Shown: in pieces, positions 69 through 33,885 of the stretch | How the letters are laid out: each line of letters begins with the position of its first letter | Position numbering within the stretch: position 1 is the first letter of the stretch | Source: Catajapyx aquilonaris | Taxonomy: Eukaryota | Length of the DNA stretch: 36,745 nucleotides | Assembly: GCA_000934665.2 (NCBI GenBank) | Contig: JYFJ02003875.1 | Location: 1-36,745, forward strand | Reading direction: 5' to 3' | The notes under the pieces: model-generated | Database searches by the model: none | What the model saw: only the letters and a program-made list of their open reading frames with translations | Told to the model about the DNA's origin: nothing | Position numbers and translations under genes: made by a program

Positions 69-252
69 TTCTAGAGAATGTGTGTAAAAGTAGCCAAATA
101 AGTTTATCTTCATCCAACTCAGGTGTGATTTTATCAAAATGTTTCTCGTATGCAGTTTGGGTTAGATTTTAGAAGTTTCGTAAGTTTAGTCTTTTTAGGT
201 TTGAGCTTTGATACAATATCAGTGCAACACTAAAGGTCTTAACAATTTTCAG

Positions 253-3200
253 GACAAGAATCAGAAACTCCTAAAGAATCTATGACAGATCTTTCAAGTG
301 AGGATCCCTACCAAAGAGAGCCTGTAAAACGTAATCGAAGAGACCTGGCTAAGAAGAAAAGTACACCAGCAAAGAAATTGACAGCATCTAAGGCAGATCA
401 TGCAGTCAAAAAGGAAGCCAATACGCAAGAAGATGAAGCAGCAGAAGAAGCATTGCCCACCATCATGCCTAGAGCACGTTCCCCATCACTGACTGATTCA
501 TATTATTCTGAAGATGAAAATGGGGAAGGTGCAGATCTGGAGTATCATGAAGATGTCGATGAGGAATATTTAGAAGTATGTTCAGTGTCACGCAAGAGAA
601 ATGACCATTTGTCATTGTTCCTATGTCACAGATGTCAACAGACATTTACATTCAGAGGTGAATTTGAAAGACATTACATAAGTGCCCATGAAGCGCCTCC
701 CACTTTCCAGTGTGGATTGTGTGAGAAACTATTTTCACAGTTCAATGCATACAAATCTCATCGATATCGCCATCGCATGGAGGGAAAGTTTAAGTATGTC
801 TTGTTACCAGTAAAATATTCATTAAAGTAGATCCACACATCATTTACGCATATATTTTTTAGGTGTCAAGATTGCCCGAAGGCATTTAACACAAATGCAT
901 TGCTGCAAGTTCACATGCAATCCCGCCATTCTGCAGGGATGCAATACGTGTGTGAGAAGTGTGGGAAGTCTTTTCGTACGAAGTCTGGATTTAAATGCCA
1001 TGAAGCCAAGCATGAGGGGAGCTCAGTTGGTGTACAATTTGCCTGTGAAGTGTGTGGGAAAATGTAAGTAACCCAAATTGGTTTTTCTTCTAGGTTATGG
1101 ACTAGTACTGATGAAATGGTTATGAAATAGCATAACACAAGTAATTCATCTATTCATTTATCATCAGTACTTGTTTTGGTCCACATTCTTTCACTTTGTC
1201 TGCTTGTACACCTATCTGCACAGGGTAGTGCCAAAGGTGTTAATTTCCTCTTGGGTCTGCGTTTCTTGAGATATGCTACTGGGAAATATGTTACTCAAGT
1301 AGATTTTGGCAATTTCTAATCCTTATAGTATAAACGAGAGTGGATGTACTGTACTATTAACCGCAAAGGTAATGTCGCGACTGTTTATATGTGATGCCCG
1401 AGATCGGTTGGTAATTCTGGGCGCTGTCAGGTTACAGATATATTGATTTGGCGATGTTCCGGAATCCACAACACTGGTCACCGGTCGTCCCCACGGTCCG
1501 GGTCACAGTTTGAGAGCTCTGCTACTTATTCGTGCAACTTATTTCTGCTCTGCACTGTAAAGTCTGCGTAATTTATAAAACAGAACCTACTTTTATCAGC
1601 AATTAAATCCACACTGCAATAAAATAATACTGTATAAGGTCTCGAACTCTCGATTGACAGGCAGGCAGTCATCAACAACACTGCAGTCATCAACTAGTTT
1701 TTTATAGACCTAAATAACTTCACATTTTGCGCCACACATTAGCAAATTACATGATGAATTTTAATGAAACGTCTAGTAGTTAACCAAAATACTGTATTAT
1801 AGGGGACAAGCAGGGACCAAGCCTAACATGTGGACTGTGACGTAGCAGTTTTGCTTGCTAAGTTATAAATTTTTCGGCAATTTTGGAAATTTTTAGGCAA
1901 CGGAATTCTGCCAAATGCACCCCTGGAACCTTCGACTCTTCCTTTTTCTATGGAAATGCGCTTCACACAACAATAGGAGTAAACAGTGTTCTATTATCAT
2001 TGCCCTCATGCAACAATAGGAGTGTTTACTCCTATTGTTGCATGAGGGCATTTCCTTGGAAACAGGAAGAGCGGAAGGTTCCAGAGGTACATTCGGCAGA
2101 TTTCCGTCGACTGTAGCTTCAGGTGAACCTAATACGTCACAGTCAGGTTAGGGTTCCCCCTATCAGGTTAGTATAGCCTTCTTACGAACGGGCTCCCAAG
2201 GCTCCCCAAAAGGATATTTGATAGCATTATCTCTCCACTTTCAATCACTTCTGCGTACGTTGACTGACACCACGTTCAACATAATTATGTAGGCTACCCG
2301 ACACTATACACACGGGTTTGCTGCTATAAATTAATAAATAACATATTTTAAAAATCTACATATGTAAGACAAAGTTTCTTTGCTTTTTTGTTTGCCCATG
2401 GCATCGGGATTTTGTTGGTATGATTACCATGAAAGCAAGCCGTGCAAAGAACGGGCTCCGCTGCTAGTTCTTTATAAAGTTATTGGCATGTTTGGGTTAT
2501 CCATAAGTGATGGGGTCATCTTCATGCATGTCAACTCCCAACCTTTTCTGCATAAGTTGCTTGGCATGCAGAATGATGCATCACCAGTGTGGGAGGGCAA
2601 TTCAAAACTTATAAAGCACCATAATGAAGCTGAATTCACCAAAGGCAATTAGGACAATTTTGTCTTATAAATTTACAAGAAGGCTAAATCTGAGAGAAAG
2701 AGCACACCTTTGGCGCCACCTTGTGGAGAGGACTGTAGGAGGAATATTTCCTAGTTAGATTTGATAAAGAGAGCTGGTTATTTTTGTAAAAGTCTTACAA
2801 TTCAACTAGAGTGAGATAGATCTCTGATCCTGTCTTATTATTCCCTCAGCCTGCACACACATTCTGGGTTCCGGGCACATTCTCTGGTGCACACGCATGG
2901 CAAGCGCTTCATGTGTGATGTGTGTGGTAAGTGCTTCACCCAGAAGGTGAACCTGCAGCAGCATCAGAAGTCCCATAATGGAGACAAGCCCCACACCTGC
3001 GAAAAGTGTGGCAAAGGCTTTGCTGAGAAGGTCCACCTGCAGAGGCACTATGGTAGCCACTCTGAAGTGCGTTCTTTTGTTTGTACAATCTGCCAAAAGA
3101 CTTACAAAACTGAGAGCACCCTCAGAATTCACATCAAAACCCACACACATCCAACAGAGAGGCCTTGCATCTGCAATTTCTGTGGGAAGGGCTTCCTCAG

Positions 3201-3630
3201 CAACCATAAGAGAAAGGTAACTTTGCTTGAAACATCATCTCTAATCGACATATGAAAACATCACTGTTTTTATTGACTAATTTCACAGTAACAGTCATTT
3301 CTTTTGGGAATTGTGTACAGATGGCAGCATTTCATATGATTACCATGTGGCTCCATCTTTGAATACATTTTGTAGAAATATGGCACCTTCAAATGTGAAT
3401 TTAAGCACTAATGTACTCACAATCCCCAGCAACATGAGAACACCCACACCGGTGAGCGGCCCTATGCTTGCAAATACTGTGACAAGACATTCACCAATTA
3501 CCCCAATTACCTGAAGCATACAAGACGAAGACATCTCCCAAAGGAATCGTCTGCTAAGGGGGCAGAATTTATTGCCACAAAGATGGAGATAGATGACCCC
3601 AGTGAGTTGCAAGCAGAAGAAAGTGGATAA
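253..3630 (+). CDS. C2H2 zinc-finger protein, 3' part with 10 tandem fingers after an acidic linker; N-terminus lies upstream of the window
   Basis: Exons 253-793, 863-1063, 2850-3216 and 3430-3630 join in frame across GT-AG introns; three fingers are completed only by splicing (GKFK|CQDC, CEVCGKI|LHTHSGFRAHSLVH, NHKRK|QHENTHTGERPY); stop TAA 3628-3630; AATAAA near 3883. Confidence 0.92.
1219..2725. mobile_element. Degenerate DNA-transposon relic bounded by ~22-bp terminal inverted repeats, in an intron of the zinc-finger gene
   Basis: CACAGGGTAGTGCCAAAGGTGT (1219-1240) is an imperfect inverted match to ACACCTTTGGCGCCACCTTGTG (2704-2725); no clear target-site duplication. Confidence 0.45.
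1896..2113. mobile_element. Palindromic MITE containing a perfect 23-bp hairpin
   Basis: About 1900-1985 pairs with about 2023-2107; perfect stem TGCCCTCATGCAACAATAGGAGT (2001-2023)/GTTT/ACTCCTATTGTTGCATGAGGGCA (2028-2050); right end CTG|TA. Confidence 0.7.
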
Positions 3631-6917: not shown

Positions 6918-7042
6918 ACACGACTGGACATAATAGCAGTCCCTTGGAAATTTTCCAGCAGGGGCAGTGCGAGTGGCGATCTCCACATGCGCCGGCCAAG
7001 TTGGAAAATTTCCAAGGGACTGCTATTATGTCCAGCCATGTA
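6918..7042. mobile_element. Small MITE with perfect 34-bp inverted arms
   Basis: CTGGACATAATAGCAGTCCCTTGGAAATTTTCCA (6924-6957) is the exact reverse complement of 7002-7035, with a 44-bp spacer. Confidence 0.7.
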
Positions 7043-8107
7043 CAAGATATTGCCTATGTAAAGACATGGCACAATTTTCCAATTTCTTTTTGATGGGAGC
7101 TGGAAGGTTCAGGGGGAAATACAATACATAAGACTTGCTTGCTACTCAAAGATCTTAGCATATATTTTTCCTTGATCCAGATATATAGTTATTTTTGTAA
7201 GCCAGTAGTCGACTCTCAGTCTGTGTCAGTCAGAGCATCAGGCAAATCATGGCAGCAGTCGAGGTGTTGTTTTTAAGAATGTATGATCAGTAATCTCTAG
7301 GGCACCTACATTGATCAATTTACTAAATTTTGGTGTGATTTGTGTTGTAAAGGTCCAATGAGTTCACTGGAAATTTACAGATGACTAGCCTCCAATGTGA
7401 ACATGCAGTCTCCTTAGTCAAAATGCTACTGCATATTTGCATTAGATCAGAGACATGAGTGGTTTTCCTGTGAACCTGTCAATTCCTTCATTTATTATCT
7501 ATTATTATTATTTATTCATCTTTATCTTTCTGGCCATAACAATACATAGGTTTTTAATGATCACATAACCTGAGCTTAATAGACAAGACAATATATCGAA
7601 GTACAAATACTAACTTTAAACTGTCAATTTCAAATAGAGGATATGGAAGTATCCCAGGACAATAATTTCTGAATATGGGACATTGACGATACTCCAATAT
7701 TTGACCATGACATCATTTCAGAATGCGACTACCTCTTGACACATTATGATGACAATGGAGCCTGGTGCTTAGAACACAATATTGCAGTTTTTAAACCAAA
7801 TAAACGACTTTAGGCCCTGATGTTCTTTCACTTAATTGAAAAACCCAGAGGCAGAATGGTCCAGATGTTACCTGTTTAATGGCACAGTTGTCAAAATCAT
7901 TAATAATAATACTAATGTGAGAATTAATCTAGATATGCCTATTTCCATGGTGTGGATCTTCCCTTGGATTTATTCCCATCCATTAAGAAACCCTCCAACA
8001 AATCCTTTAGTTGTTGAGATTCAGACTCGGAGGTTGATGACTGAAACAAAGATATTGGAAGAGTAAATAATTATGACTGTACACAGAATAAGATCATAAT
8101 TACTTAC

Positions 8108-11100
8108 ACCTTGTTGGCACTGGCTGCTGCTCTCTTTGCTATGTTGTGAAACAGGCCTTCCAGTGAATGTTCTCTGCACAACTTTCGGTTTACCTTTGGA
8201 CAACTTCTTGATTGAGCTGTTCTTCGGTGGTTGATGAAGAAGCTGAAAATTTTCATCTCATGAAGCAACCATACAATATTTTAAAATACCCTTCATCACC
8301 TCCACATGCACACACACTCCACATTGAGGCTTTTACCTAACCTAGAAAGTGAAAGGAAAAGAGCAGGAGATTTCAGGCAGGTTCCAGAAGGCTTCAATCC
8401 TTCCTTTATTGACTGGTCTAACAATGCCCAGCCCTACCCCAAATATTTTTGCCAACATCTTTGAATAGGCCTAGAGTCTCAAAACTGCCAGAAGTAGTAA
8501 GATTTGGTCTCATTAGATCTCAAAGTGGGGTTTAAACTCAGGTTCAAAAGCTCTTCTTTGGAATCCAAATAATATTTACAAGCAGAGTAGTGAACTTGGC
8601 AACCCCTCTGGTATAATTACCTCCATTAACTGAATGTACCTGCTAGTGAGTCATAAATTTCTTGACTTGGGTACACTTAGACTTTGCTTTATGCTGCTAT
8701 TTTAAAGGACGATATGCACAATTAACTACGTACCTGCTTGATATGTTTAACCAGCATATCTTCTATTCCTGTGTCGATGGACCCATTAGCTAGCTTCTGA
8801 ACTGTTGATTCTTCTTTGACAGAACTAGTTTCACTTTCGTCAGAGAGAACCCCATTGGCAACAACCTTGGGCCTGGTGCCATTCTCTTGAGGGGATGTGC
8901 TGATCAATCGCTCCCTAGTAATTGCACTTGCCTTCTTCTGGTTAGGCTTTCCCTGTGGTGAAGGTGATGAAGGAGTAGGAGGCAAGGTGCTAACTGGCCC
9001 TACACAAGATGGTGTGCTGTGGAAAACATATCCATCCTTGGGTGGCTGAGAGTATGGGTGTGTCGGTGGGCTAAGAGAGTGGGAGGGCACGCCCAAAGAC
9101 AGGCTAGGAGGAACCCAGTTGCTGTATGACACTACGGGTGGCTGCTTGTTCAGCCTTCCTTCAGAGTTCGTGTCAGAAGAAGGCGTGGCCCTGCGTTCAC
9201 CCGGATGAAGCTGCTGCATGGTTTGGTTCAAGTGATCTAGAATTGCCTCCTGAAATTGCTGAGAAGGGCATGTGTGCCTGGCCTTAAAGGCAGCAACCCA
9301 GGATATCACTTGCTCTAAGTTGTGCACCATGAAATCACGATGCCTCCTGTGGTTTTCACTCTCCAACTTATACTGCTGCTCCAGAGACTCGAAGTCAGAC
9401 AGACTCCTACAAACGTGAGACGACTGAGTAAAATATTCATGGTGGCACAAAAAATGTTATATTCGTATCAAACGGAATTGTAAAAAACTATTACTTGTAG
9501 AAAATCAAGTGCAAAGTCACACTGCGAGAGCACAGTTCAATGCAACAGTTTAACCATATTTTAAGCTCACATGGCAACTTGTCTAGGGCTGATGGCAGGT
9601 TTACTGTATATCTGCTAAGACAAAATTGAGGCAGTCTCTCATGTCACTCACTTGGCCCTGAATTCCTTCAGATTCTGCTCATATTTCTCTTGCAGCCTGG
9701 ATACGCTGGCCCTGTGGTGCTCCTGCATCCTGTTCCGCTCCTGGTCCAGCTCCCCAACCTTCTCTGAAACTATCCTCTCGACCTGTTGCTGGTAGAATTT
9801 GTGGATCTCCTCCCTGGCTGCTTCAACCTTTTCCTCACACTGCTTCAGGCCCTCCTTCCACCTTCCCTCTTTGCTTTTGACCTCTTTCAGCTCAGCCTGG
9901 GCACCCTTCAGCTGGGAATCCAACATTTCAGCTCTCTTTGTTTCTTGCTGCAACCTGTTCTCCAGGTGCTCTTTCTCCTGGGCTAACTGCAAAAGTGTAA
10001 TAAGCAATATTAGATCATGTAGCAGCGTGTACTAACTGCCCTTTTAAATTCAAAAGGTGATGAAGGTAATGAAGTCATAGATTGTTTTCTCTGGCAACCA
10101 TACAACTACAAGGGTTGATTCAAACGTCATGGCGTGTATTTTTGTATTCAAAAACAGTGACACATACAGAGATGACCTTTGCTGAGTTTTGAAGATCTGG
10201 CGATTACAATTTGATCTGGCATATAGATGTCGCCCATATCGCAAGGGGTCGGAAAACAAAAGGGGATCGTGACCCCCTCACCGCACCATCACCCTAAGAC
10301 GGCCTGGGCCTGACGCGCCTGGAGCTGTTGGGACGCTGCATGCGGGACACTCGGAGATGGACAACACTGGAGCTTGCTTTTGAGTGTGGGACAAGTCAGA
10401 GCACTATGACCGGAGCCATGTGTCATCCATTGCCACAGACAGGTTTAAAAAACCATCCCCCTGACCCCTCAATGCGATCGAGTTCCAAGCGAGGGCAAAA
10501 TGGCGGGACTTTGGCACCTCAAAGAGATGGCAAGGAACCCGTGAGGATGCCAACTTCCTGAGACCATTCAGTCTTTCAGATTCCTAAGCATAGTTCTCTG
10601 ACTTGTCCCACACTCAAAATCAAGCTCCAGTGTTGTCCATCGCCGAGTGTCCAGCATGCAACATCCAACAGCTCCAAGCGCGTCAGGCTCGGGGCTTCGT
10701 AGGGCGATGGTGCGGTGTCACATTCTCCCTTTGTTCCCCCACCCCCCTCACGATATGGGCGACATCTGTATGCCAGATAAAATTATAATCACCAGATCTT
10801 CAAAACTCAGCAAAGGACATCTCTGTTTATATTACCGTTTTTGAATTTAAAAATACGCGCCATGACTTATGAATCAACCCTCGTACAATGGGAATGAACG
10901 GGAATGTCTCCCATCACTTTGGCTGTGAGAGTAGCTAGCACATCACAATACTATGAAATCAAAGAACATTTTTGATATCAGCTTTCTAAATGCACCCATC
11001 GCCTTACCTTTCCAGTTGCATCCTCTAAGGTAAGTCGCTGTTCCTCAGTGAGTCTGACCTGCTCCAACCTTCTCTCCACTTCCAGAGTGGCCTCCTTCCG

Positions 11101-12459
11101 CTTGGCAGCTATCCTGTTGTTTTCTTCAAGAAGCTTGGCAGAATGTTCCTCTGCCTTTTGCAACTGCCCTTGAAGCTGGGTCACTTCTGCTCTGTGTGCC
11201 TCTGCTGCAATGGCCTTCTCCTTCTCTGCTCGCTCCAATTTTGTCTTGAACACCTCTGCCAAGTCGAGTGCCTTTGACAGTTCCTGCTCATACTGCTGTA
11301 CACGTTTTTTGTGTTCCTTTAATTCAATCCCAAGTTCTTGCTTCTCCTTACGGCAGCTGTCAAGGTCTCGCTTCAATTCCAACTCAGTCCGGCGGCGCTC
11401 CTCGATACCATGCTGGTTGGCATGCTCTGACTCACGTAGAGCTGCAGTTTTGTGGCGGTCAACCTCAACTGCTACTGCAACCTTTTCTTTCTCCTCCAGG
11501 AGGTGGATCTGCAATTGTTGGATCATCCTCTCGCACAACTGGCGACGGCATTGCTCCTCTGCTAGCTTTTTACCAAGGCGCTGTGGTTCTTGCGACTGTT
11601 GATCACCCCATAATTCTCCCAGGTTTACATGATCTGCAGGCCATGACGACACATCATCAACATGGACATGCCTCGTTTGTGGACGCAAGAATTGTGGTAT
11701 TCCTGAACCTAGTGCAAACTCCACCTTCTTTTTGGGTCGTACATCAACCCCCGCAGCATCTGAGGTGCCGGAAACAGCATTTCCAGGTCCAGACTTTGCA
11801 GTGTTTGGGCTTCGCGGTCCAAATGCGTCATTTGGGTGCGAGCCATGAATGCTCTCAACATTGTTTAATGTGTCATCTTCACTGTGGTCCCCAATGGGAG
11901 TCACCTTCTTAACAACGCATGGCTCCTCCACTACAGCCTTCTGTGGTGAGTCACTCCATAGATTGTCTAGACTTCGCTGAATATCTCTCTCTGTCTGCAG
12001 CTTTGTCTGCTGTATCTCTTCCCACAGGCGCCGCAACTCTTGATAGTTGACTAGGGAGAATCCACCAGGTGTCTGACTTCCAATGCCCTCACTTAAGCTT
12101 CGCCAAGTTTCATCGCCCTGCCGCCAGTTGTCAGGACTTCCCTTCTTAGGATCACCAGCACCATCTCTAAAATCAAAATTGTATCTGGGAGGTATGGTAG
12201 TGCCTAGGTCACCATCCTGGAAAGTCAGCCTCTTTCGAGCCGAGTCAGACTTGCTGGGTGAGTTCGGAAGAGATGAAACACGTGGAAACCGACGCCCAGC
12301 AAAGGGGACATTGGAGGGGCGGACCACCACATTAGGAGAGGAGGAAGCACTGATGGACGATACATCAGTTATATTGAGGGCCAGATCTATGTCAAGGGCT
12401 GAGTCGGCCAGATCAGATGTAGATGGAAATGTGAGGTCTGTGTTGGTAGAGCGCTCCAT
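8108..12459 (-). CDS. CNTROB: Centrobin-like centriolar coiled-coil protein; terminal exon(s) uncertain
   Basis: Exons 12459-11008, 9986-9652, 9406-8734 and 8242-8108 are in frame with GT-AG boundaries; EEQCRRQLCERMIQQLQIHLLEEKEKVAVAVEVDRHK...YEQELSKAL matches my recollection of human centrobin EHTRRKHCERHIQSLQTRVLELQQQLAVAVAADRKK...LEQSLSEAM; possible last exon 5620-5493. Confidence 0.8.
10109..10883 (+). mobile_element. Internally deleted mariner-derived element with ~150-bp TIRs, in a CNTROB intron
   Basis: TA|CAAGGGTTGATTCA ... TGAATCAACCCTCG|TA; inverted similarity about 10109-10266 vs 10725-10883; internal remnant RRWTTLELAFECGTSQST resembles the second mariner HTH. Confidence 0.8.
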
Positions 12460-12941
12460 CCGGAACCACTAGGATGATGATGCATTGTCTGAAATAGGGA
12501 TGTCACAATCATTCTATGGCATAATAAAAGGTATTACAGATAATTGGCAAGTACAGTTCTCATGCAATGAAACACAAAAGGTCTATCTTATAAAATGCAT
12601 GTAATGGCTCATTGAGTATTTTCTCTCATACACGTTAGTGCACAAAATATCTTTCAGAACCAGATTGCATATTCCAAGGCACTGCAATAATCAAAAAAAA
12701 AATTTGTCAAAAAGAAACTATGCATGGTTCATAATAAAATCTGAGTTCATAACAATCCTGTAAAACTATGGTTTAGCTGTGCTGATAGTGATCTGCAACT
12801 GCAAATGATACTTATTTTGCCAAGTCCCACTGCAGTTACAAAAGCAATGTTTTACCCCAAAATAAAAAATAAGTCACAATAAGGAATTCCTCATAATCTG
12901 CCTAAGGAGGGTCTTTACCCCATGAACACCAATGTCCTCAT

Positions 12942-14039
12942 TTAAGCCCATAACACACCTTTGAAGCCTTCCTTTTTAAATGCACAAATAACAGCTTCAA
13001 GTATGCCCAGTTTCACCCTCCTATGCTGCACACTAGTCCACCTGCAGCTTTCAGCTGCCCTCTCCAAACACTTGTGCAAATCTTGACTTATCAACAACAC
13101 CATACGTGCACCCAGCTTTCCAACTCGATCCATTTCTTGCACAACAAGTGGAATTAATTCTCTCACACTCTCTACCGTTCCATATTTGAGCCCAAATGGC
13201 AGATCACACAGCACAACATTGATGCAACAATCTTCAAGTGGCAGACACTGTGCATCGCCTTGTAACAAGGCAACATTTTTTGTCTCTGCATAAGCTACAT
13301 TTTCAGCAGCCTTCTCTAACTGGGATGCATCAATATCAATGGCAATTGAGAAAGATGGTTTGTCTCGCAGAGCCTCAATAATGATGGTGGCAGCCCCACA
13401 CATAGGATCCAACACAGTGTCACCTGGGGATATGCCGCCCCACATGGCCATTGCCCGGCAAACGGTGGATCTCAGGTTCGTGTGGAGCAAGTACACACGT
13501 TCCGAGATTGGCTGCACAGAAACAGGCAACCCAATGGTTATACCATCATTGTTTAGTTGCACGTAAATTTCAACCAGAGGTGCTCGCAAATCCACATCCC
13601 ACTTCATGACGGATTTGACCTCATGTGACAGCAACCTCGCCACATCCACCGGTTTGAAAGTCCTCTTAAAGCCTCCACCCACTTTGGCACTGACTCTAAA
13701 AGTAATTGTCATTTTGGCTTTCTTAGCCTCCTTACGCCAACCTTGGAAATCAACCCATTTTTGGAAAGGCTCACTCCAGGTGGGCACCGACTCTGCAAAG
13801 AGCGTGGCCAACCTGGCAGCCTCGGAGCGCTGCCAGGTGACATCCAGCCGTGGCTTGTGCTCCAGCATGGCAAAGAGGCGCTCTGCCGTCCCAATCAGCA
13901 GCAACCTCTCTGGGTCCAGCTGGGACTGAAAGAAGACCTTTCCCTGGACCACCTGCGTAACCAGGCATCCCATCGCTACTAGCTCATCCCTACAGAACGG
14001 CTCCAGACCCGAGCCAACAGTGCAGAAGAAGCTCCACAT
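12942..14039 (-). CDS. THUMPD2: THUMP domain-containing protein 2 (U6 snRNA m2G methyltransferase family), intronless 365-aa CDS
   Basis: First ATG at 14039 gives MWSFFCTVGSGLEPF...GKVFF (human FFCTAGRGLEPF...GKVFF); THUMP segment TFRVSAK; SAM motif VLDPMCGAATIIIEA; motif IV CDLPFG. Confidence 0.9.
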   Translation of the reverse strand: MWSFFCTVGSGLEPFCRDELVAMGCLVTQVVQGKVFFQSQLDPERLLLIGTAERLFAMLEHKPRLDVTWQRSEAARLATLFAESVPTWSEPFQKWVDFQGWRKEAKKAKMTITFRVSAKVGGGFKRTFKPVDVARLLSHEVKSVMKWDVDLRAPLVEIYVQLNNDGITIGLPVSVQPISERVYLLHTNLRSTVCRAMAMWGGISPGDTVLDPMCGAATIIIEALRDKPSFSIAIDIDASQLEKAAENVAYAETKNVALLQGDAQCLPLEDCCINVVLCDLPFGLKYGTVESVRELIPLVVQEMDRVGKLGARMVLLISQDLHKCLERAAESCRWTSVQHRRVKLGILEAVICAFKKEGFKGVLWA

Positions 14040-14205
14040 CTCTCGAGTGCCGTGCTGTGAATCCCACGCAGCCAGTTGTGTGGTCACTGTGAGCAAGTTC
14101 GTTAACCTGGATTTTAAAATCTGCTCCTTCCACCGCAGGCCACCGCGCAACTGTCGACAACTCGAGGGAGGGATTGTCCTCGGTCCATTCCCCAGCGTAA
14201 CCTAC

Positions 14206-14583
14206 CTGTTGCGGCAGTCCCACCAGTCCGGTCCAGCCCTGCAGACTTTAACTGTCCTCTGCACCTTTCAAAATGATCATTTTCTCTAACGAGTGTGTGT
14301 GTGTGTGTGTGTGTGGGAGGGAAAGGAGGGGGAGGAGGAGGAGGAGGGAAGAGAAACGTTGCTTTACCAACTCGGCCGCCTGTTTGGTCGGTGGCGCTGC
14401 AGGTCTACAGAATTTCCGAACGCTTGGAAGGGAAAGTGACGTCACTCGCTTAGGTCTTCTGGTCTGCTCTTCACATCTTCTGTACGCACCCCACACACAC
14501 ACTGAGGAAAACGTGTAGGTAGTGTACGGTCCAAGGTGGTACGGTCTAACGTGCTTCTCCTAATACACCGGCCTTATTTTCAG
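14206..14583. promoter_or_regulatory. Bidirectional promoter and leader-exon region between THUMPD2/CNTROB (-) and COA1 (+)
   Basis: CpG-rich interval between divergent ATGs 560 bp apart; perfect CRE palindrome AG-TGACGTCA-CT at 14435-14446; minus-strand donor CAG|GTAGGT at 14205; plus-strand donor GTAGGT near 14515 and acceptor TTATTTTCAG ending 14583. Confidence 0.65.
14293..14315 (+). repeat. (GT)11 microsatellite
   Basis: Read directly from the sequence. Confidence 0.95.
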
Positions 14584-14598
14584 GTGAACCAACCATAA

Positions 14599-15039
14599 AT
14601 GGCAACGAATCTGACGTTGGCGAAAGTGGCTGCTGTTGGGGGCTTCCTGACTGTGAGTGCTGGTATGCTGTTCCGGTGGGAGATACAGCGGAAAGTGAGG
14701 AAGGCTGAGTTTTACCAGCGCTCCATAACCATGCTGAACAACCATGCGGGTGCGATGGATCTCCTAGGACCGCCTGTGATGGCGGGGAATGTGGACTTGG
14801 GGGATACGGGGAAGAACTTTTGTGATGCGCATCAAGCGCAGTTTGAGGTTCCTGTTAGAGGGAAGAAAGAGACTGGGAAGCTCTATCTGTGGGCTGAGAG
14901 GCCTGATGTGAAGCGGGGTTGGGAGATCAGCAGGCTGGAGTTAAGTCTCAACAAGGATGAAAGCAGGAGGCTGGTGTTGCACAGAGGGGCGACAGACGAT
15001 GCCAGGCAAAGTGAAGAAATGTTCTCAATGAATAGTTGA
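14599..15039 (+). CDS. COA1: Cytochrome c oxidase assembly factor 1 homolog (Coa1 family), single coding exon, 146 aa
   Basis: N-terminal TM segment followed by FYQRSITMLNNHAGAMDLLGPPV...AQFEVPVRGKKETGKLYLWA...WEISRLEL, the Coa1-family pattern; A at -3 of the ATG; splice acceptor 15 nt upstream. Confidence 0.85.
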   Translation: MATNLTLAKVAAVGGFLTVSAGMLFRWEIQRKVRKAEFYQRSITMLNNHAGAMDLLGPPVMAGNVDLGDTGKNFCDAHQAQFEVPVRGKKETGKLYLWAERPDVKRGWEISRLELSLNKDESRRLVLHRGATDDARQSEEMFSMNS

Positions 15040-16671
15040 AAACTCTTCAGCTCTACTGCGTAATTTTTTAATGTAGTGACACTCATCAAGGTTGTTTCAC
15101 ACTGTTACTATTATTACATTAGGAAGCCAATGTGAACAGGTCACAGGTGGAGTCACAGGGTCATATTCCTGAGACCAACATATGAGTTTTCTGCCCTTTA
15201 CTTGCATCCTGCAAAAGTGTGACATGTCCCTGATATGTAAATAAGTAAATTGTGTGCATTTGACCTATAATCTGTTAATCCATTTTGTGAACTGGATATG
15301 CAGACTCAAGCAGGCTCTTTGTGCGTGAGGAAATACCAAAAGTTATACCACTCCATTTTGACCAACATTTGATATTTGATATTGACTTTTTGTACAATGG
15401 CGTACCACTGACACATGTAGCAGAGGATTGAAATCTTCATGATAATTTGTCACAACAGGTGGGACATTTGGTTGCTGGTAAATTGATTGACGTTACAAGA
15501 GTACATAATTAATAATGTAATTTGTTTTAGTGCCTGTATATGCAGTTTATTCATAAGCTAGAAAAGTTATATCGGCAAGGAATGTTTGGCTTGAATAAAT
15601 CAGTGAGAGTGTAATGATATAACTTGTGCAAATGATTTTGCTACGCATTTATGATAGTGTCTGTGTTTTCTAAGCCTGAAAATGTTTTGTATGAAAATGA
15701 TTATACTAACAAAATATAACTCTGCTGTTGCATTTTGTAGGTCAAGGTCAAATCATAATTGGATATGATTTGTGCAGTACTATGATCCATCAAGACATGG
15801 TGTAAAACAAATATGGCGTGCAGCAAGCAGGATATACCACACATGAATTTGGTTTCTTGTAAATCCAGTGTTGCTATTACAACAATGCATAATAATTAAC
15901 ATTGCGTTTGAGGCGAGGTAATAGAGATCCTGTTATTACAGTACAGTGCAAGGTAGCCTGCAATACTACACAGTGCACATACTCAACCATAGTGTAAGTG
16001 TTCACCTGTGAGATCCAGCACATAGGTACAGTACCAGTAACCTGAATATTTTTTTATACTGCAAATGTGCTCAGACCAAGCCTGTGGATTTTGAGGGACA
16101 AATAGCAGGGATGGCGGGCTCATTCAAATGTGAGCGGTTCAGATACCTCAACTTGAATGAGGCGGTACAGTTATTTCAAAAATATTTGAAACGAGCTTGG
16201 TAATAACAAGGTCTCATCGCGCACAATCCAGTGCGGGGACTGCTAACATTAGTTGTACTCTAGTACAGCATAGGCAACCATCGGAAAAATTTGTAGTGTA
16301 TCGTGTGCTGCTAGTGATAGATGAAACAGGATGAAATACTGCGACGTCACATCTTTGGGCGTCTTTGGGTATTGAACCGCTGGATGAACACCTTATTTCC
16401 AACCGTGCAGTTATGACAGTCTGTACCGCAAAAGAGAATGGATGTGCATTTCGTTGTGTCGAGTAGTTGTCCAACTCCCCAATCAATCGGGCTGATGCGC
16501 TGATCCGCAGCGAGGTGCATTTCTGGTCGACTTGGTGGTAGACGAACTGCCAGCCGCGGAGAACTGCACGGGGGCCAGTTGAAGACCCGCCTTGGCAGGT
16601 GGGCAGCATCATCAGTGGATCCAGTCTGAGACTCTGAGCCCAAAGCAGGGCAGGGCGCCAACCGCATCGCG

Positions 16672-17721
16672 ATGACGGTCCACAACATGTACCTGTTCGA
16701 CCGAAACGGCACCCTCCTCTACTACACAGAGTGGAACAGGAGGAAGCAGTCTGGCATCACCAAGGACGAGGTGCGTGAGTCTCACTGGATATATTGGGTC
16801 TTGACATGATCACTCACAGTTATTGATGTGGTCATCCTGCCCGTGGGCCCGGGCGCTTCAAAAATAGGATTCCCAAAATTGTATACCATCGCAATAAAGG
16901 TCTGGCAGAAGACCCTAGCTCTGGGGTTAGCCGAATACCCAATCAATTATTATTGATGTGGTTGTCACAGCACTGGTCCCACACGCAACAAATTTCCAGT
17001 GGCACTGCTGGAAACAAGCTACAACTACTCATGACGCGCCTCACGCACTGTGGAGAACATGTCTTTGTCCAGCAAAGCATGAACCGGAGACGGCATGGAC
17101 CTTGGTGCTAGAGACAGACCCCCTCTAATTATAACTTGAACCATGAAACATGCACTATTCCAGAACTTAATGTCCTGGTCTGGAGATGAGTCAACAGTGG
17201 CCCATAAAGTATGCATATCTCGTTCTTTTTCTAGGAGGCTAAGCTGATGTATGGGATGCTATTCTCAATCAAGTCCTTCGTGAGTAAAATATCACCAGTG
17301 GATGTAAAGGAAGGATTTCAGTGCTACAAGACAAACAAGTACAAGTTGAACTTCTTTGAGACACCCTCAGGCCTCAAATTTGTCCTGAACACAGATCTGA
17401 GTGCACCTGCTGTCCGAGAATTGCTGAAGGAGGTCTACTCCAAGGTGAGAGGTCACATGTTGTATTGAACTGCATGCCAACACTATAAAATAAGCGAACG
17501 TGGGATCAATCCCTACATGTAGGAAGCAATACCCAAATTTTTCATGACATTACCATGTGTTACTGCAGAGCCAATATATGTTACTCTTTCAGATATATGT
17601 GGAATACGTGGTAAAGAGTCCGCTGTGGCAACCTGGAGAACCAATTGCAAGTGAGCTTTTCAAGTGCAAATTGGATGAACTCATACAGCAGTCAGCTGCT
17701 TTCACATCAAGGAACATCTGA
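16672..17721 (+). CDS. TRAPPC1: Trafficking protein particle complex subunit 1 (Bet5), 145 aa
   Basis: Exons 16672-16770, 17235-17444 and 17593-17721; [23 protein letters not shown]...[22 protein letters not shown]...[15 protein letters not shown]...[14 protein letters not shown] introns; ATTAAA and AATAAA downstream. Confidence 0.96.
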
Positions 17722-18379: not shown

Positions 18380-19678
18380 TACATATTTCTCGACGTATAT
18401 CTGTCTGTCTGTCTTTTGTGACCTCATCAGATCCATACGGAGGCCTCCACATATGCCCCAGGGGTATCACTAGGGGTAGTTTTTTACTGGGAAGGTTCTT
18501 AGCACATTGGACTTGACCTCCGAGGTCATCCTTGGCCACAGGAGGCGAAAAGAACTTTGGATGTTGGCGCCGTTCTAATAATCCGCATATTGGTACATAA
18601 ACAAGTTGCCATGGAAATGGTCCTTCCTTCTCTCAAGGCCCTAGGGGTCACATCCACTTTGGTCACATCACCCTCTCCTCATGCCGCCACCACCAGGCCT
18701 TTGCATATACGGTATTCTTCGTCCGCCAAAAAAGGCCTCGTCCGTCTCCCCCTTCCCACACACTCCTCCATCCGCCCGCCTCTCCTGTTCCATGCTTGGT
18801 GCACCAGGAGGAACTGGTAAAACACTTGTGACTAATCTGTTGTTGGCGAAAGTTCATCAGGATCAACAAATTGCACTTGAGGTTGCCTCTTCTGGCATAG
18901 CAACTATACTCTTTTGCCTGGTGGGAGGACTGCCCATGCAGCGTTCAAGCTTCCTCTTAATTTAGCTACACAGGAAAATGCAAGGTGCAACATCAGCAAG
19001 GGTACCGGGGTGGCACAACTTTTGAGTCAGTGCAGGTTAATTGTTTGGGATGAGTGCACCATGTCCCACAAAGCAGCTTTTGAAGCTCTGGACATCCAGG
19101 ATATCCGGGAATGCAAAACGATTATGGGTGGAGTAACTTTGGTTTTGGCTGGGAACTTCAGACAGACATTGCCTGTTGTTCCACGAGGCACACGAGCTGA
19201 TGAGATAAAAGCTTGCCTAAAGTCTTCTTATCTCTGGACTCATGTTAGAAAATTCAATCTCTCTACGAACATGAGGGCCTATCTGCTTGGTGACTACTAC
19301 TCAGAGGAATTTGCATGCGACCTGTTATTAGGAAATGGCCAATTTAGAACCGATGCCCTATAGGAAATGTTGACATGGGATTGATCGGTACGAAGATGTC
19401 CTCTGTCGATGAATTAAAATTTAAGGTCTTTCCCAATCTTTGCCTCAACTACCAGAGACACAGTTGGTTGTGTGAGAGAGCAATATTAGCTCCGAAAAAC
19501 AACACCGTCAATCTCATCAACGCACAACTCCTCAACCAACTACCTGGTCCTTCCCACTGTTCTGTGGACACAGTCCCAGACGAAGCCCAGGTTATGGTGT
19601 ATTGCAAAGGTCCGAATCAATGAGTCACTCCTATGGAAAAGTATTCCATAACCCGAGCAACGCTGGGTATCCTGCTAG
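18380..19678 (+). mobile_element. Non-autonomous Helitron carrying frameshifted Pif1-helicase fragments
   Basis: Walker A GAPGGTGKT, ASSGIA, GGRTAH..FKLP, WDECTM, GNFRQTLPV, LSTNMR and ERAILAPKN spread over three broken ORFs; 3' hairpin ACCCGAGCAACGCTGGGT followed by CTAG|T (19651-19679); 5' (TCTG)n tract; 5' boundary approximate. Confidence 0.9.
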
Positions 19679-20382
19679 TGTAAAATATTTCAAGCAAAAC
19701 TCAGCCTTGTTCAACCAGGCCATAGCCCGAAACAATGTTGTTTCCTTACTAGCCCAGAAATAGTGGACCATTGTAGTGTAGCTGAAATAACCTCCCACGT
19801 GCGTGATTTGAGCCTGAAACACTAAGAGAGTAAAAAGAAACCCTTGCGCACACAGGTCACGCTTTATTACAATGAAAAGTATCTTCAACTTTCACAACAT
19901 TAACAATGAATATTCTCATATTCTACAAAAAGCATATGACTTGAAGTGATTAACAAAATAATTAGATGACATAACATCTTATTAAATTTGCCATTATTAG
20001 TTTCATTGCCACTAACCTAAATTGTGAAATTATGTCATGCCTTCATACCAGTTAACATAAGAAATATGTATCCTGTATGGTAAATGTCATTAATTATAAG
20101 GGCATTTTAAATGCAATTGTTCAGCTATCATTTATTAATAACTCTGCATCAAGTCAAACTTGCCTCTCACATTCTCAAATTCATCACAAATCCTTTACAG
20201 CAGCAAATAGGTAGTGAAGACTTTTTAAAACATATCAACCATATTTGCAAATATAACACTATGTACACCATATCTTATACACACAGCTTTCTCTCATTCT
20301 CATCATAAATAATTATTTATAACAAAATAATATGTTTCTATCACTGGCTGGGCCCAATGGTTAATTAACTTTCTTACTCTTC

Positions 20383-23300
20383 TCACGCCATAGCAGAGGC
20401 TGGCAAAGAACTGTGCTTGGGTTTGACCTTGTTGAGAAACACTTTTATGCACCCATTGAAATCAGCGCTCACTATGACGTATCCGGAGCACCCAGAAGTC
20501 TGTGGTGGGAGGAGGGGATCTTCTGTCTTCTGCCTCTCACGCTCAACCTGCTTTATCACCAGGTCAGGATTTGGAGCAAACACTGCGCAGGTCACTAAAG
20601 CATTGTGAGCTGTGGGAAAATCCAATTATCATTATGAAGCGCAATCAATAAGCAACCACATTTCATTACTTTGAAATCAATGAATTTAAGTGAAAGTGCC
20701 GAAACTTGGACACATGAATAAACTCCAGAGCTCATAATATTTAATTTACGCTACCCTCTTCTTATGGCACTATTGATAAGTCTGGAAGTATTCCTTGTAA
20801 CACCTAAATGACTGGTATCTGAATAGAAGAGCACCAGTCTCAACTGGGAACAATTATTATTACACTTGCTAGGCCCAGACTTTTGCACCTTTTAAGTACT
20901 TGTAATATTCTCCTTACAAACCATATAATCTTTATTTGTTCTTTAAATGCTTGGTTAATAAGCCAATTTTTTAAACCTCATCCTATAAATATTCACATGA
21001 TGGTAGGCTACTCATACAGTATTAATAATTATGGTGTGACATCTCACCTTTAATCCCTTCCCAATAGTCGTTCCGGTCACGTCTTGCTGAGCTGAACTTA
21101 GCGTAGTCATGGTGTGTCCGCCATATGTATATGCACTGATTCTCTGACCCACTGATTATGTACTTGCCATCATGACTGCCAAAAATAAAATAAACTATTA
21201 ACTCTCTCAACAACTAAAAGTATGGTCAAAAGGAATAAATAATCCTTTTGAAATATATATCACACTCACACAACTTTCAAAAAGTCGTCAGACCAATTTG
21301 ATTTCTCACAACCACGCCTCAAGAAGAACCCCCAACAAAACCCGCATGAACATGAAAATCACTGAAATTCTTTCTGCAAGAGCAAGTCCTCAGCCTGACT
21401 TTCGGACTGAACTTGGGACCTCAGGGGTGGGAGATTTTGGCTATGTTGTGATATGATATGCACACAGCTGCCTTAAAAGACAACGTCAAAAATGACCCTC
21501 TAAAAATCCCAGATGTGTGAAGTCAAATTTGGTCTTAAGACTTTTTGTTTTTGTAATTCATGGATCAACTTCAAGGCAAAGAGGGTGAAGTTCCTACCTG
21601 AAGCTTGCACGTATTTGACTGCTGACGTTAGAACATCCTTTATACTTGCAAGAGAGGTTGAGGTCTCTCAGATCATACAGCCTGATGCGGCTGTCATTGG
21701 AAGTGACTAGCACCTTGTCCTCCCCTGGCATTGGTTCAATGCCGCTGATTTTTCTGCCCTTGGCATTTTTACCTCTGGTGGAGCGTACATGGATTTGTGT
21801 GTGGTACTTCAGCTGATCAGTGTTGTAAAACAGGCACCGTCCATCATACGAACCCACCACTGCAAACTTCCCATTCTGTGAGGACAACATAATGGTAATA
21901 CTTGAATTAGACGTGTCATAGACTTGCTGGACTTATCATATAGGACTATAGGTGAACAATTAATACAGCTAACATATGCCTCAAAAGAGCACAGTATGTC
22001 CAAATACAATGACTACAAGAATAACACCTGCAGAGGCTAATACGACACTGCCTACCCACAACTTCTAACCACACACACCATTATGTCTACAAATGGTCCA
22101 ACTTTTCCAGAAACTTCATTTTCATGTCTATCATCAAGTTACTACTGACTTCACCCCAGTTTCAAGATGCATTACAAGACTGCATTCTTAATAAAAGAAA
22201 TACATAGTTGACTAATGCTCAAGTAAATGCTGCTGCTTCTTGGCCACTAAGAATACTATTTATCATAACAACAACATATAATTATGCTAAAGTGGTGGCA
22301 GTTCTCTCAAAGGAACTATGAATAGAATGATATCATGTATTCATCAGCAACTCATGCAGTGCCTTAGGATTGCTCAGCATGAGCCATTCAGTGAAATATG
22401 CAATTAGCATACATCATTACTTCAATGGCATCTAAATAACCAAAGTTGTAACCAACGTAATTATCATTTGTTTCGCCACATAAGATAACCAGAATCTGTA
22501 CAAGAGAATGTAATTGCCTGGCAAAAGTTAGCAGCTGTGATCAGCTTGCTCTGTCCATCGAGTTCATTCCAGAGGGCCACTTTCTTATCAGGGATGTTCC
22601 AAAGGCGCAGCTTCCCATCCAGGGAGCCACTCAAAAAATAGCGATCATCCTGAAAAAAATGTACATGTAGTATTCTAGGGATATGAACTCAATGCTACTA
22701 CACGGGGCGGACACCATGTGTAACTTGAGGCCTAAATATCAGCTACATACCCTTGGATGAAATGCAATGGCAGTCACAAAGTCAATGTGTTGGAAACAGC
22801 ATAGGCACTCCTTCCTTGAAATGTGCCACAGGCGCACAGTCTTGTCCATGGATGAAGACAAAATGAAGTAGTTCTGCAATATATAAATCCACCAGTCATC
22901 TAGCTTCATCCAACAAGACATTTTGAAGTCCATGCCCCCACACAGAAGTACTCCACTATACATTATTCTTTTGACTCAGATCTTTCACGTTCAGAAGGTT
23001 CCATTGTGAGTTTAACTTTTCAGTCTGGTATTATTAGAAATAACTTCCACTAGAAACTATCATGCAACACAATAAAAGTAATCCTTAGGATGCTATTTAT
23101 ACTGGAAAAAAATGAATGACTTTGACAATATGTTACCTTTGACCAGGAAACATCAAGTAGATCTGATGTATGTCCAGAATATATGCAGAATGGCTTTGGC
23201 ATGAAAGGAGCAATGGCATCCTGCTCTCCCCCATCCTGCTCTGCACTCCCACCAGCCGCAGCTGCTGCTGCTGCATGGGCCATCAGAAGCGCATCATCTG

Positions 23301-26300
23301 TTGACTGCTGTGACACAAGCGACTCTTGGGAGGGGGTAGGAGATACTTTCTCTGCGTTGTACTTGGTGCGCATGTCTTGGAAGTACGTGTAGGCATCTCT
23401 GAGGACCCAAATCCTTAGAAGACGATCCTGTCCAGCAGTTGCTAATAGACGGCCACAAGCAGAGAACTTCATGCACCAGATAGGACTAGAATGCTCTCCA
23501 CTCAAATCCTGAATGAACTGCAGGGTATCAAATTCATAAGGACCTTTGTGGCTGCTTGATGCTTTCACCTGGAATAAAGAAGAAAATGCCTGCATTGATA
23601 ACACCCACCACAAAAAATTGATGCTAAAAGTCAATTTCTGAATATTCACTTTCTTGAAGAAATTGCATGGGGTAAAGGTGATTACATGAAATGAACAATG
23701 TTAAAAACTGCCTGAAAAAAATTAATCTGGCGTAGTGTTATGGTCAGCCTCGACAATAATCTGACCAGTACCCAAGTGCACACTCTCCCCATAGCTTAAA
23801 TCTCTCTTAGTACAGAAAAATATTTAGGAACTGTTTCAGAGATCCCTGCCCAAATACACTGAAATTATTACCCCATAAATAAAATTTGCCTTCAATGGAA
23901 ATACTAAATGTGCTTTGTGTCTTTTTCTTACAAAGGATTTAGAAAGTGGAAAAGGGCATGAATGTGAGTTCCTAGTAGAAGATAACTGGATGGAATTTCA
24001 CATATCTGGGCTCAAACAATGTCAAGGTGGAGAAGTGGGGTAGGGAGGGTACAATTCTGAAAACTCCAGGATGCCTTAATTAGTAACAAATGAAGATGTT
24101 ACAAGGTGCAGTCATTAAGTTCGAAGCCCGAATTAAATCTCGGCTCCCATTTAACATAGCACGGCCAAATATTTATGGCACGTCGAGAGACTCTTTAGGG
24201 TGCAGAGGAAAAAAAAAAGAGGGCGCTGGCTCATATTCGATAATAATATAATTCATACCCCGTTATCAGCCATCGGCTTTTTAGGGGGGCAGTTTGTTTT
24301 GCCTGGAACTCTACGCTTTTCATTTTACTGTGCTCTTTGGGATAGGATAGGGACGGAAGGAAGCAGCTGTGGCCTATTAATTACGGAAGCAACTCCGGAA
24401 TTTCCCTGGAAGGACCGTGGGAAACCACAGAAAACGACGGTCAGAGTTGCCGGCCCCGGGATTCGAACCCAGGACCTCCTGATTAGCAGTCGGGACGCTT
24501 TATCCACTATGCCAACCTGCTTCGGTCATATTCGATAATAGTTCTGGTCGTTTTCCCGAGAGGGCGCGCGGGAGTTCGGCGATGAGAATAAATAACACAA
24601 AATGGCGCCTGAGCGGAGGTTTGAGGAGCAACGCAACTCAATCAAATTTTGTGTGCTGCTGGGCCATACTCCCCAGGAAACACTGGGCATGTTGAGAAAG
24701 GCATACGGCAGATGTGCTGCTCTCTCATGGCCGGCTGTAAAAAAGTGGCATCGGCGTCTCGACTAGTGATGGGCCGCCCGCTGCGAGGATTGTCTGATGT
24801 GGTCTCTCGGCCCTCCCGGAAACGCCGATGCCACTTTTTTACAGCCGGCCATGAGAGAGCAGCACATTTGCCGTACACCTTCCTCAACATGCCCAGTGTT
24901 TCCTGGGGAGTATGGCCCAGCAACACACAAAATTTAATTGAGTTGCGTTACTCCTCAAACCTCTGCTCAGGCACCATTTTGTGTTATTTATTCTCATCGC
25001 CGAACTCCCGTGCGCCCTCTCGGGAAAACGACCAGAACTATTATCGAATATGAGCCAGCGCCCTCTTTTTTTTTCCTCTGCACCCTAAAGAGTCTCTCGA
25101 TGTGCCATAAATATTTGGCCATGCTATGTTAAATGGGAGCCGAGATTTAATTTGGGCTTCGAACTTAATGACTGCACCTTGTATTTGGGATTCCCATTTC
25201 TTCCTACAGTTGCTTTGATTCACATATTCAAAGATGGTACTAAGCACTTGAAGTTTAGCACATGTCAGATTTCTAAACCTAGGTGAACCATGCAGATTTT
25301 CTATAATTCGATAAATCTTCAGAATGACAATGTCTTTCTCTGAGTCAAGGCCATCTCAGCAGTTGTACAATGGTGTGCAGTGTCCAATTCACAAATGCAA
25401 CTGTGTCAGAGTTACGGCGACCCAGCCATAAAGGCCCCACGCCAATCACAAATGCAACTGCAAACACAGGTCCAATCTCCATTCCCATTTTGCCACTCAA
25501 GCCAAATGCAGTGTCTCCAAATAGTGCCATTTAGTCAATGGACATAGATTCATTGATGAAAATGATTGTCTTGGGGTTCCCTATCTCCCATTAAAATTGG
25601 TATACACAGATTTTAAACACCCTGCATACCTTAAGGTAATGTTCAGTGCCTGGATTGTCATCAGCAATATCAAGTCCCTCATCCTTATGTCTGGCATGTG
25701 ATACTTCTTGAGCTATAGATTTGGCCTTATCCATCGTCTTCTTCATTGTGACCCCAAGGAAACGTTTCAGTTGTGACCTACTCAGGGGAAGAAATGTTTT
25801 TGTCAGTTATTGGTTGACTCAGAAGTTTAAGTTCCCCATTACTTACGTCTTCTTCTTAACCCCATTCCCATCTGTTTCTGTCGTATTTGTGGCCACTTTC
25901 TTAAGGTCCACACTCTCCTCATCAGATTCCTTCTCCTTATCGAGACTAGAATTGCTGTGAAGAAACAAATAAATCCACTTTATGCAATTTAGTAAACAAT
26001 ACAATGGAACTACAATGGAAGAATGGACAACTCCATTCACTGTCTATACTCCCATTCTCCAATCTTGTTTGCAAGTCATGGAAATCACTTGTGTAATGAA
26101 TTTTCATGTTTTCCCTACCTGCCTGATGATCTTCTGCATGCGTGCATGGAAAAGATGCGGTCCAAGTATGGAGAAAAGACAAAGAAATGTTCTCTACTAT
26201 ACATTAATTAACAATATGGGAAATGTGCCTTTTCGTAGTTTCAACCAGTGTGGAAAGAAATTGTCACAAATGTCACTTCTGACATGCAGTTATTAAACAC

Positions 26301-33592: not shown

Positions 33593-33643
33593 ATGGAGGA
33601 CCTGGCAGTGGAAGTGTGCGGCGACAACGGGGCCTACTACAAG
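33593..33643 (+). CDS. FMR1: Fragile X messenger ribonucleoprotein (FMR1/FXR) coding exon 1; the gene continues beyond the window
   Basis: AAG-ATG-G context; MEDLAVEVCGDNGAYYK matches the FMR1 N-terminus (human MEELVVEVRGSNGAFYK, also a 51-nt first coding exon); followed by a GC donor AAG|GCAAGG. Confidence 0.88.
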
Positions 33644-33885
33644 GCAAGGCTTAGGGCGGGGGCACCCACCCCGGCATGGCACGGGGGCGGGCCAGGGGCA
33701 GAGGGACCCGCTGGGGCGGGCCCGCCTCGGGTGCACTCGAGGGGGGAAAGAAGGAGGGGGGCGCTTGCCCGGCATGCATGCACCGGTTGCGGGGAAGGAG
33801 GGAGGGAGAGGGAGGGGCTGCCCGCCCGGTGAAGGGAGAGGAAAGGGACAAGAGAAGAAGAAGAAGGGAGGGGGAGGGATGGATG

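Follow-up and report, generated by a model that had tools for sequence, protein, structure and literature searches.

The closest described parallels to the locus considered here come from a tick and a fly. In Ixodes scapularis, an 82-bp exon 1 is shared within the cholinergic locus, where the open reading frame (ORF) of VAChT forms an exon in the first intron of ChAT (PMC7524744). In Drosophila melanogaster, FlyBase flags 130 genes with a promoter and 5′ non-coding exons in common, e.g. Ip259 and RpS27A, and same-strand nested genes are not among the arrangements flagged as unusual in the relevant part of that account (PMC4528330). Here we describe a locus that appears to be of this known kind, from Catajapyx aquilonaris (assembly GCA_000934665.2, contig JYFJ02003875.1, positions 1-36,745; the window, below, is this whole stretch of 36,745 nucleotides (nt)). 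An intronless ORF for a THUMPD2-family methyltransferase (the THUMP ORF) and a centrobin-like gene lie on one strand, the ORF wholly within the first intron of the gene, and the locus is a nested gene pair with one divergent promoter region, shared with an oppositely running COA1-like gene. Sharing of the leader exon by the nested gene is putative. Vertebrate gene symbols should be read here as family names only.

As in the cholinergic locus, a whole ORF forms one exon within another gene's first intron, on that gene's strand, and a short non-coding exon 1 upstream (82 bp in the tick, at least 68 nt in Catajapyx) is spliced past the nested gene onto the host's next exon. The tick exon was found joined to both genes by RT-PCR (PMC7524744), whereas in Catajapyx a join to the host gene alone was seen. 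The locus resembles the shared-promoter genes of FlyBase in that two unrelated protein-coding genes stand on one strand with a single promoter region and a first exon that is non-coding, their coding sequences (CDSs) not overlapping; if the THUMP gene has its own start, in contrast, the Catajapyx pair is an ordinary nested gene. Two metagenome scans for an orthologous locus gave 31 and 127 pattern matches, none of which was confirmed as a relative.

Leader exon and first intron of the centrobin-like gene

The sole public run listed, X1, was used as contigs (library type unrecorded) and mapped to positions 7000-17000. Eight joints are listed, with 8 of the 50 contig pieces shown, and six of the eight have GT..AG ends on the strand of their own gene, five on the minus strand (14206/12488, 11008/9986, 9651/9405 (cut +1), 8734/8242 and 8108/8040) and one on the plus strand. 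The remaining two fall in a repeat-rich intron stretch and comprise an opposite-strand joint (10160/10849) and a skip with GC..GG ends (10240/10361). The introns are uncovered in X1 except for the repeat-rich part of intron 2, and the five minus-strand exons join into a frame of 898 codons that is open throughout and has consensus-like splice sites, from which we infer that X1 is RNA-derived.

One contig of this run, 486 nt long (depth 7.7), aligns over 68 nt at 14206-14273 and over 418 nt at 12071-12488. Its joint from 14206 to 12488 skips 1,717 nt, with CT..AC ends on the plus strand, i.e. GT..AG on the minus strand. Read on that strand, the donor is AACAG/GTAGGT (the slash marks the cut), with GT at 14205-14204, and the acceptor is TCCCTATTTCAG, with AG at 12490-12489 and the exon starting at 12488. 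Just three letters at the joint fit both sides, and the 68-nt leader is unique in the window (49/49 20-mers single-copy), so that a de Bruijn mis-join or other assembly artefact is unlikely. There is no ATG inside the leader. From the joint it follows that the entire THUMP ORF (12942-14039) lies within the spliced-out 12489-14205, an intron in the 5′ untranslated region (5′ UTR) of the host, on the same strand. The preliminary description of this DNA had argued that the large centrobin coding exon needs a non-coding leader, had predicted the junction of 14206 with 12488 and had placed the intronless THUMP ORF in host intron 1. The junction is present in the contig, a leader of at least 68 nt was found upstream of the ORF, the nesting holds, and every site named in that description matches the minus strand base for base. 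The parts of the host gene are as follows.

14206-14273, minus strand: leader exon of the centrobin-like gene, non-coding (minimum extent), from the X1 contig joined to 12488
12489-14205, minus strand: intron 1, a 5′-UTR intron of 1,717 nt with GT..AG ends that holds the whole THUMP gene, from the joint 12488/14206
11008-12488, minus strand: exon 2, with the start codon at 12459-12457, from X1 joints, the frame and the bee centrobin match
7094-9986, minus strand: exons 3-6 (9986-9652, 9406-8734, 8242-8108 and 8040-7094), with the stop at 7941-7939, from four CT..AC joints

All splice sites of the 898-codon host CDS are GT/AG, and an in-frame TAG (12471-12469) lies upstream of its ATG at 12459. 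A bee protein named centrobin was the only match to the host among 8000 long candidates scored (expectation value (E) 5.9e-11), and pairwise BLASTP of the host against it gave 3e-20, with 32% over 186 residues in the coiled-coil core. A Pfam search of the host protein returned no family match, and a search among proteins of similar length returned two unnamed matches. The centrobin label already proposed for the host is upheld by the bee match and has moderate support. A feature search with the centrobin exon was set aside as non-specific, having a recognition of 1618, below the mark of 2300, and returning generic coiled-coil centrosome proteins only.

Three further observations concern the host gene. 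A 32-codon upstream ORF (uORF) on the minus strand begins at ATG 12485 (A at -3) and ends at 12389-12387, out of frame with the ATG at 12459 and overlapping it; to judge from this placement, it should damp or regulate centrobin translation. In intron 2, the repeat-rich part (10116-10849) has two arms of opposite orientation and many diverged X1 contigs with loose ends; it probably consists of two short interspersed elements. A C2H2 zinc-finger gene of several exons (243-3630, plus strand) runs convergently towards the 3′ end of the host.

At its 5′ end the host gene faces a second leader, that of the COA1-like gene, at most about 210 nt away.

14274-14483, no strand: divergent promoter interval between the leaders, whose X1 contigs end at 14273 and 14484
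14484-15579, plus strand: COA1-like gene, with a leader to 14518, a 65-nt 5′-UTR intron (14519-14583) and a CDS at 14599-15039, from the joint and contigs

Between the two leaders lie a (GGA)n/(CA)n microsatellite (14283-14356) and a perfect TGACGTCA palindrome (14437-14444). The ratio of observed to expected CpG is 0.69-0.74 in 14274-14483 and 0.65-0.74 across 13900-14800, in a window that is CpG-depleted (0.45). The COA1-like joint, 14516/14582 (cut +2), has GT..AG ends on the plus strand, the contigs of the gene reach 15579, and its product matches Pfam Coa1 at 1.5e-12. The nearest COA1 clusters are arthropod, which we treat as a lead only; on these clusters and the CpG depletion, the DNA would be placed in an animal, probably an arthropod.

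The nested THUMPD2-family gene

Human THUMPD2, with TRMT112, has been described as the methyltransferase that makes N2-methylguanosine (m2G) at position 72 (m2G72) of U6 small nuclear RNA (snRNA) and promotes efficient splicing (PMC11014329), and further papers treat it as a U6 snRNA methyltransferase (PMC13109388; PMC10415138). The gene nested in the centrobin-like intron has the following extent.

12942-14039, minus strand: intronless 365-codon ORF for a THUMPD2-family RNA (guanine-N2) methyltransferase, from the ORF, Pfam, the tree and the model

The frame runs uninterrupted from 14039 to 12942. Its ATG lies 166 nt past the donor at 14205, and its stop (TAA) lies 453 nt upstream of the centrobin acceptor. 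The product matches Pfam UPF0020 at 7.3e-23; the Pfam THUMP match reaches 20.6 bits, exactly at the cut-off of 20.6, and RlmL_1st reaches 26 bits, just below its cut-off of 27. An AlphaFold model covers the whole protein with a mean predicted local distance difference test score (pLDDT) of 93.8 and a predicted template modelling score (pTM) of 0.91. Pfam and the model together give an N-terminal ferredoxin-like and THUMP RNA-binding module, and the protein has a class I S-adenosylmethionine methyltransferase domain with the motifs DPMCG and D-x-P-F-G. Across 40 aligned relatives, D211, P212, C214 and G215 of DPMCG (211-215) show almost no variation, and D279, P281, F282 and G283 show none. We take DPMCG to be motif I and D-x-P-F-G to be the catalytic motif IV. 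The same layout of THUMP module and Rossmann methyltransferase, with DPMCG and D-x-PFG, is that of human THUMPD2, and the best named relatives are THUMPD2 or THUMPD2-like. On sequence and model, the nested ORF looks like a working enzyme.

An exhaustive HMMER search returned 2,233 relatives at E <= 0.001, the best of them 44% identical. Sixteen of the 20 top representatives looked up carry a name, mostly THUMPD2, THUMPD2-like or a generic name ("hypothetical protein", "THUMP domain-containing protein" or "RlmK/L-like methyltransferase"), and one ostracod relative is named TRMT11 by UniRef. The named relatives come from a cockroach, a stick insect, an ostracod, a sponge, a nemertean, an annelid, a hemichordate, fishes, frogs and lampreys. 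In a maximum-likelihood tree of 27 chosen rows, the ORF falls in a clade (support 98/96) with ostracod, damselfly, cockroach and stick-insect sequences and three unnamed sequences, and a vertebrate THUMPD2 clade of 12 rows (100/99) excludes it. The tree is made of rows other than THUMPD3 and TRMT11, so that the exclusion of those two families is by best hits only. Compared with vertebrate THUMPD2, the Catajapyx protein is short (365 residues), is without the long linker and is 28-37% identical to the aligned vertebrate sequences. A 111-residue fragment from another source is 60-62% identical to its N-terminus and has the same short linker; the choice of ATG is supported by this fragment, which starts just a few residues upstream of the start of the Catajapyx ORF.

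The bacterial/archaeal m2G6 transfer RNA (tRNA) methyltransferases TrmN and Trm14 (PDB 3tma and 3tm5) match the fold over its full length, with template modelling scores of 0.77-0.84 over 365-394 columns (Foldseek E 6.7e-27 and 7.3e-26). They are just 19-23% identical, and the animal THUMPD2 proteins are much closer in sequence. The THUMPD2-family label proposed for the ORF is supported by named best relatives, domains and conserved motifs. The vertebrate framing that came with it is doubtful, as the enzyme groups with arthropods, the only named relative of the host is from a bee, and the nearest COA1 clusters (as a lead) are arthropod. With the tree and the arthropod leads from the host's bee match and the COA1 clusters, a retrocopy of vertebrate THUMPD2 was dropped as a candidate; the nested ORF is probably the THUMPD2 orthologue of its lineage. 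Among the representatives looked up, THUMPD2-type genes are found in arthropods (including insects), a nemertean, an annelid, a hemichordate and a sponge, a distribution wider than the vertebrate-only one stated in PMC11014329.

That the ORF might be an unexpressed or decaying copy, e.g. an old retrocopy in the intron, with only the host gene mattering, would fit its lack of introns, set against the introns of 65-1,717 nt in its neighbours, and its long branch in the tree (1.65). We nevertheless consider this highly improbable. A frame of 365 codons would stay open by chance with a probability of about 2.5e-8 ((61/64)^365, equal codon use assumed), the residues invariant in the family are kept, the model is confident throughout at the pLDDT given above, no poly(A) remnant follows the stop, and the protein groups with arthropod orthologues, unlike a copy of a vertebrate gene.

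Expression of the nested gene

In the preliminary description, one leader was proposed to serve both genes through 3′ splice-site choice, or else a dicistronic messenger RNA (mRNA) to be made. Three sequence features bear on how a THUMP mRNA might begin and end.

12489-12941, minus strand: AT-rich spacer of 453 nt from the THUMP stop to the centrobin acceptor, from a hexamer scan and a G+C content of 34%
14106-14108, minus strand: candidate acceptor AAAATCCAG, with AG at 14108-14107 and an exon that would start at 14106, from the sequence
Within the spacer 12489-12941, minus strand: candidate weak donor GGG/GTAAAG, with GT at 12918-12917, from the sequence

The reading that we tentatively prefer, though with confidence a little short of even, is that the THUMP and centrobin mRNAs share a start. 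Centrobin-like transcription begins beside the oppositely running COA1-like gene, and splicing joins its short leader (at least 14273-14206) over 1,717 nt with the acceptor at 12489. The THUMP mRNA would have its start site, or start-site cluster, in common with the centrobin leader, and the primary transcript would then have two exclusive fates, following the logic of the cholinergic locus (ChAT/VAChT). In one, the donor at 14205 is joined to 12489, so that the THUMP gene would be discarded with the intron and centrobin mRNA made. In the other, this splice would be omitted, and the THUMP ORF would become the first long ORF of a shorter mRNA ending in the AT-rich spacer, its leader either left unspliced or joined to a nearby acceptor such as 14107. 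A shared start is favoured, indirectly, because the THUMP ATG lies just 166 nt past the donor of a leader that is in use and because one continuous promoter-like block, enriched in G+C and CpG, stretches from the COA1-like gene across the leader and into the THUMP ORF. The initiator-like TCATTT described below is a further indirect point in its favour.

Several points weigh against this reading. The THUMP transcript, its 5′ end, its 3′ end and a junction from the leader to 14106 are all unrepresented in the X1 contigs; apart from the bridging contig, X1 has no coverage of 12489-14205, and it is uninformative on expression of the THUMP gene. The joints 14206 to 14106 and 12919 to 12488 are not among the eight listed. 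The host junction 14206/12488 itself comes from one contig of one run of unrecorded library type. The candidate acceptor at 14107 has a purine-rich tract, and a 24-codon uORF in good context would remain in a 5′ UTR left unspliced but be removed by use of that acceptor. ChAT and VAChT work in the same pathway, whereas no functional link is known between centrobin and a THUMPD2-type enzyme, and a literature search found no paper naming the two together. An initiator-like TCATTT (14276-14271, minus strand) has its A one base before the end of the centrobin contig at 14273, and is one of two minus-strand matches to TCAKTY in 13900-14600, the other being inside the THUMP ORF. We take TCAKTY to be the initiator consensus; as contigs cannot prove a start and the coincidence was noticed post hoc, TCATTT gives no more than a hint.

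The spacer in which the short mRNA should end is also without a canonical poly(A) hexamer, an absence that is itself uninformative. On the minus strand, no AATAAA or ATTAAA occurs in the 453 nt (there is an AATAAG at 12816), as the preliminary description had said. Its argument from that absence does not stand, since base composition predicts 0.72 such hexamers in 453 nt, and chance alone yields none about 49% of the time (P ~0.49). Hexamer usage could not be calibrated on the host either, because no AATAAA or ATTAAA lies within 400 nt upstream of the end of its contig at 7094.

The same hexamer gap between the two ORFs is what would favour a dicistronic or intron-retaining mRNA, with the THUMP ORF as 5′ cistron and centrobin as 3′ cistron, and dicistronic transcripts have been described as atypical but common in D. 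melanogaster (PMC4528330). We regard such an mRNA as improbable. The gap is expected by chance as often as stated above, splicing to the acceptor at 12489 demonstrably takes the THUMP ORF out, and the start codon of centrobin already lies behind an overlapping uORF. Moreover, a stop codon upstream of exon junctions normally triggers nonsense-mediated decay, and the THUMP stop at 12942 would precede four of them.

An independent nested gene is quite possible, if on the doubtful side. It would have its own start between 14205 and 14039 and its own 3′ end in the spacer, and would share with the host a chromatin neighbourhood and not RNA. Same-strand intronic nested genes are common enough that FlyBase does not flag them, in the part of its account that deals with them (PMC4528330). 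The 166 nt before the ATG are promoter-like, with raised CpG and 56% G+C in 14040-14205 (34% in the spacer 12489-12941), and an mRNA starting downstream of about 14186 would lack the 24-codon uORF. However, this interval is just 166 nt long and lies directly behind an active leader exon, so that transcription from the host promoter would run through it, and there is no minus-strand match to TCAKTY between the donor and the THUMP ATG, although many promoters lack this motif.

Under the shared start that we prefer, the modification of the U6 catalytic centre by the vertebrate enzyme raises one further idea, that of a feedback loop through U6 in which the enzyme would tune the spliceosome. THUMP mRNA would come only from transcripts that leave intron 1 in place, so that more enzyme would mean more removal of intron 1 and less of its own mRNA. 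This is speculation resting on vertebrate data, and we think it very unlikely. In the passage of PMC11014329 that deals with Drosophila, U6 is reported to be without m2G.

Other features of the window and significance

Elsewhere in the window, the only Rfam matches are two weak ones to the tRNA model (24448-24520 and 30398-30470, both minus strand; 32 and 31 bits, gathering score 29). Both adjoin similar translated stretches, and may be the heads of tRNA-derived repeats rather than tRNA genes. A PIF1-like helicase (18500-19760, plus strand; Pfam 2e-38) is broken over several frames and looks like a decayed Helitron-type element. A fragment at 24642-24947 (minus strand) matches the helix-turn-helix domain of Mos1-type (mariner) transposases (Pfam 5.7e-06). 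A WD40-repeat gene of several exons (21594-31880, minus strand) and a fragile-X (FMR1-family) gene are arranged head to head. The first coding exon of the latter (33600-33660, plus strand) lies in an island of 62% G+C, and its match covers the first 15 residues of the Tudor_FRX1 profile, at 5.7e-05 and below the cut-off.

The analysis yields correct models of three neighbouring genes, at a locus that automatic annotation might get wrong by starting centrobin at exon 2, by overlooking its leader, or by fusing the intronless methyltransferase or leaving it out. The locus is a further case of same-strand gene pairs that are nested or share a promoter, one in which the nested product is a putative spliceosome-modifying enzyme whose expression could be coupled to a splicing decision. 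If the feedback were true, it would be a built-in homeostat of spliceosome activity in Catajapyx, and would also gate the output of centrobin.

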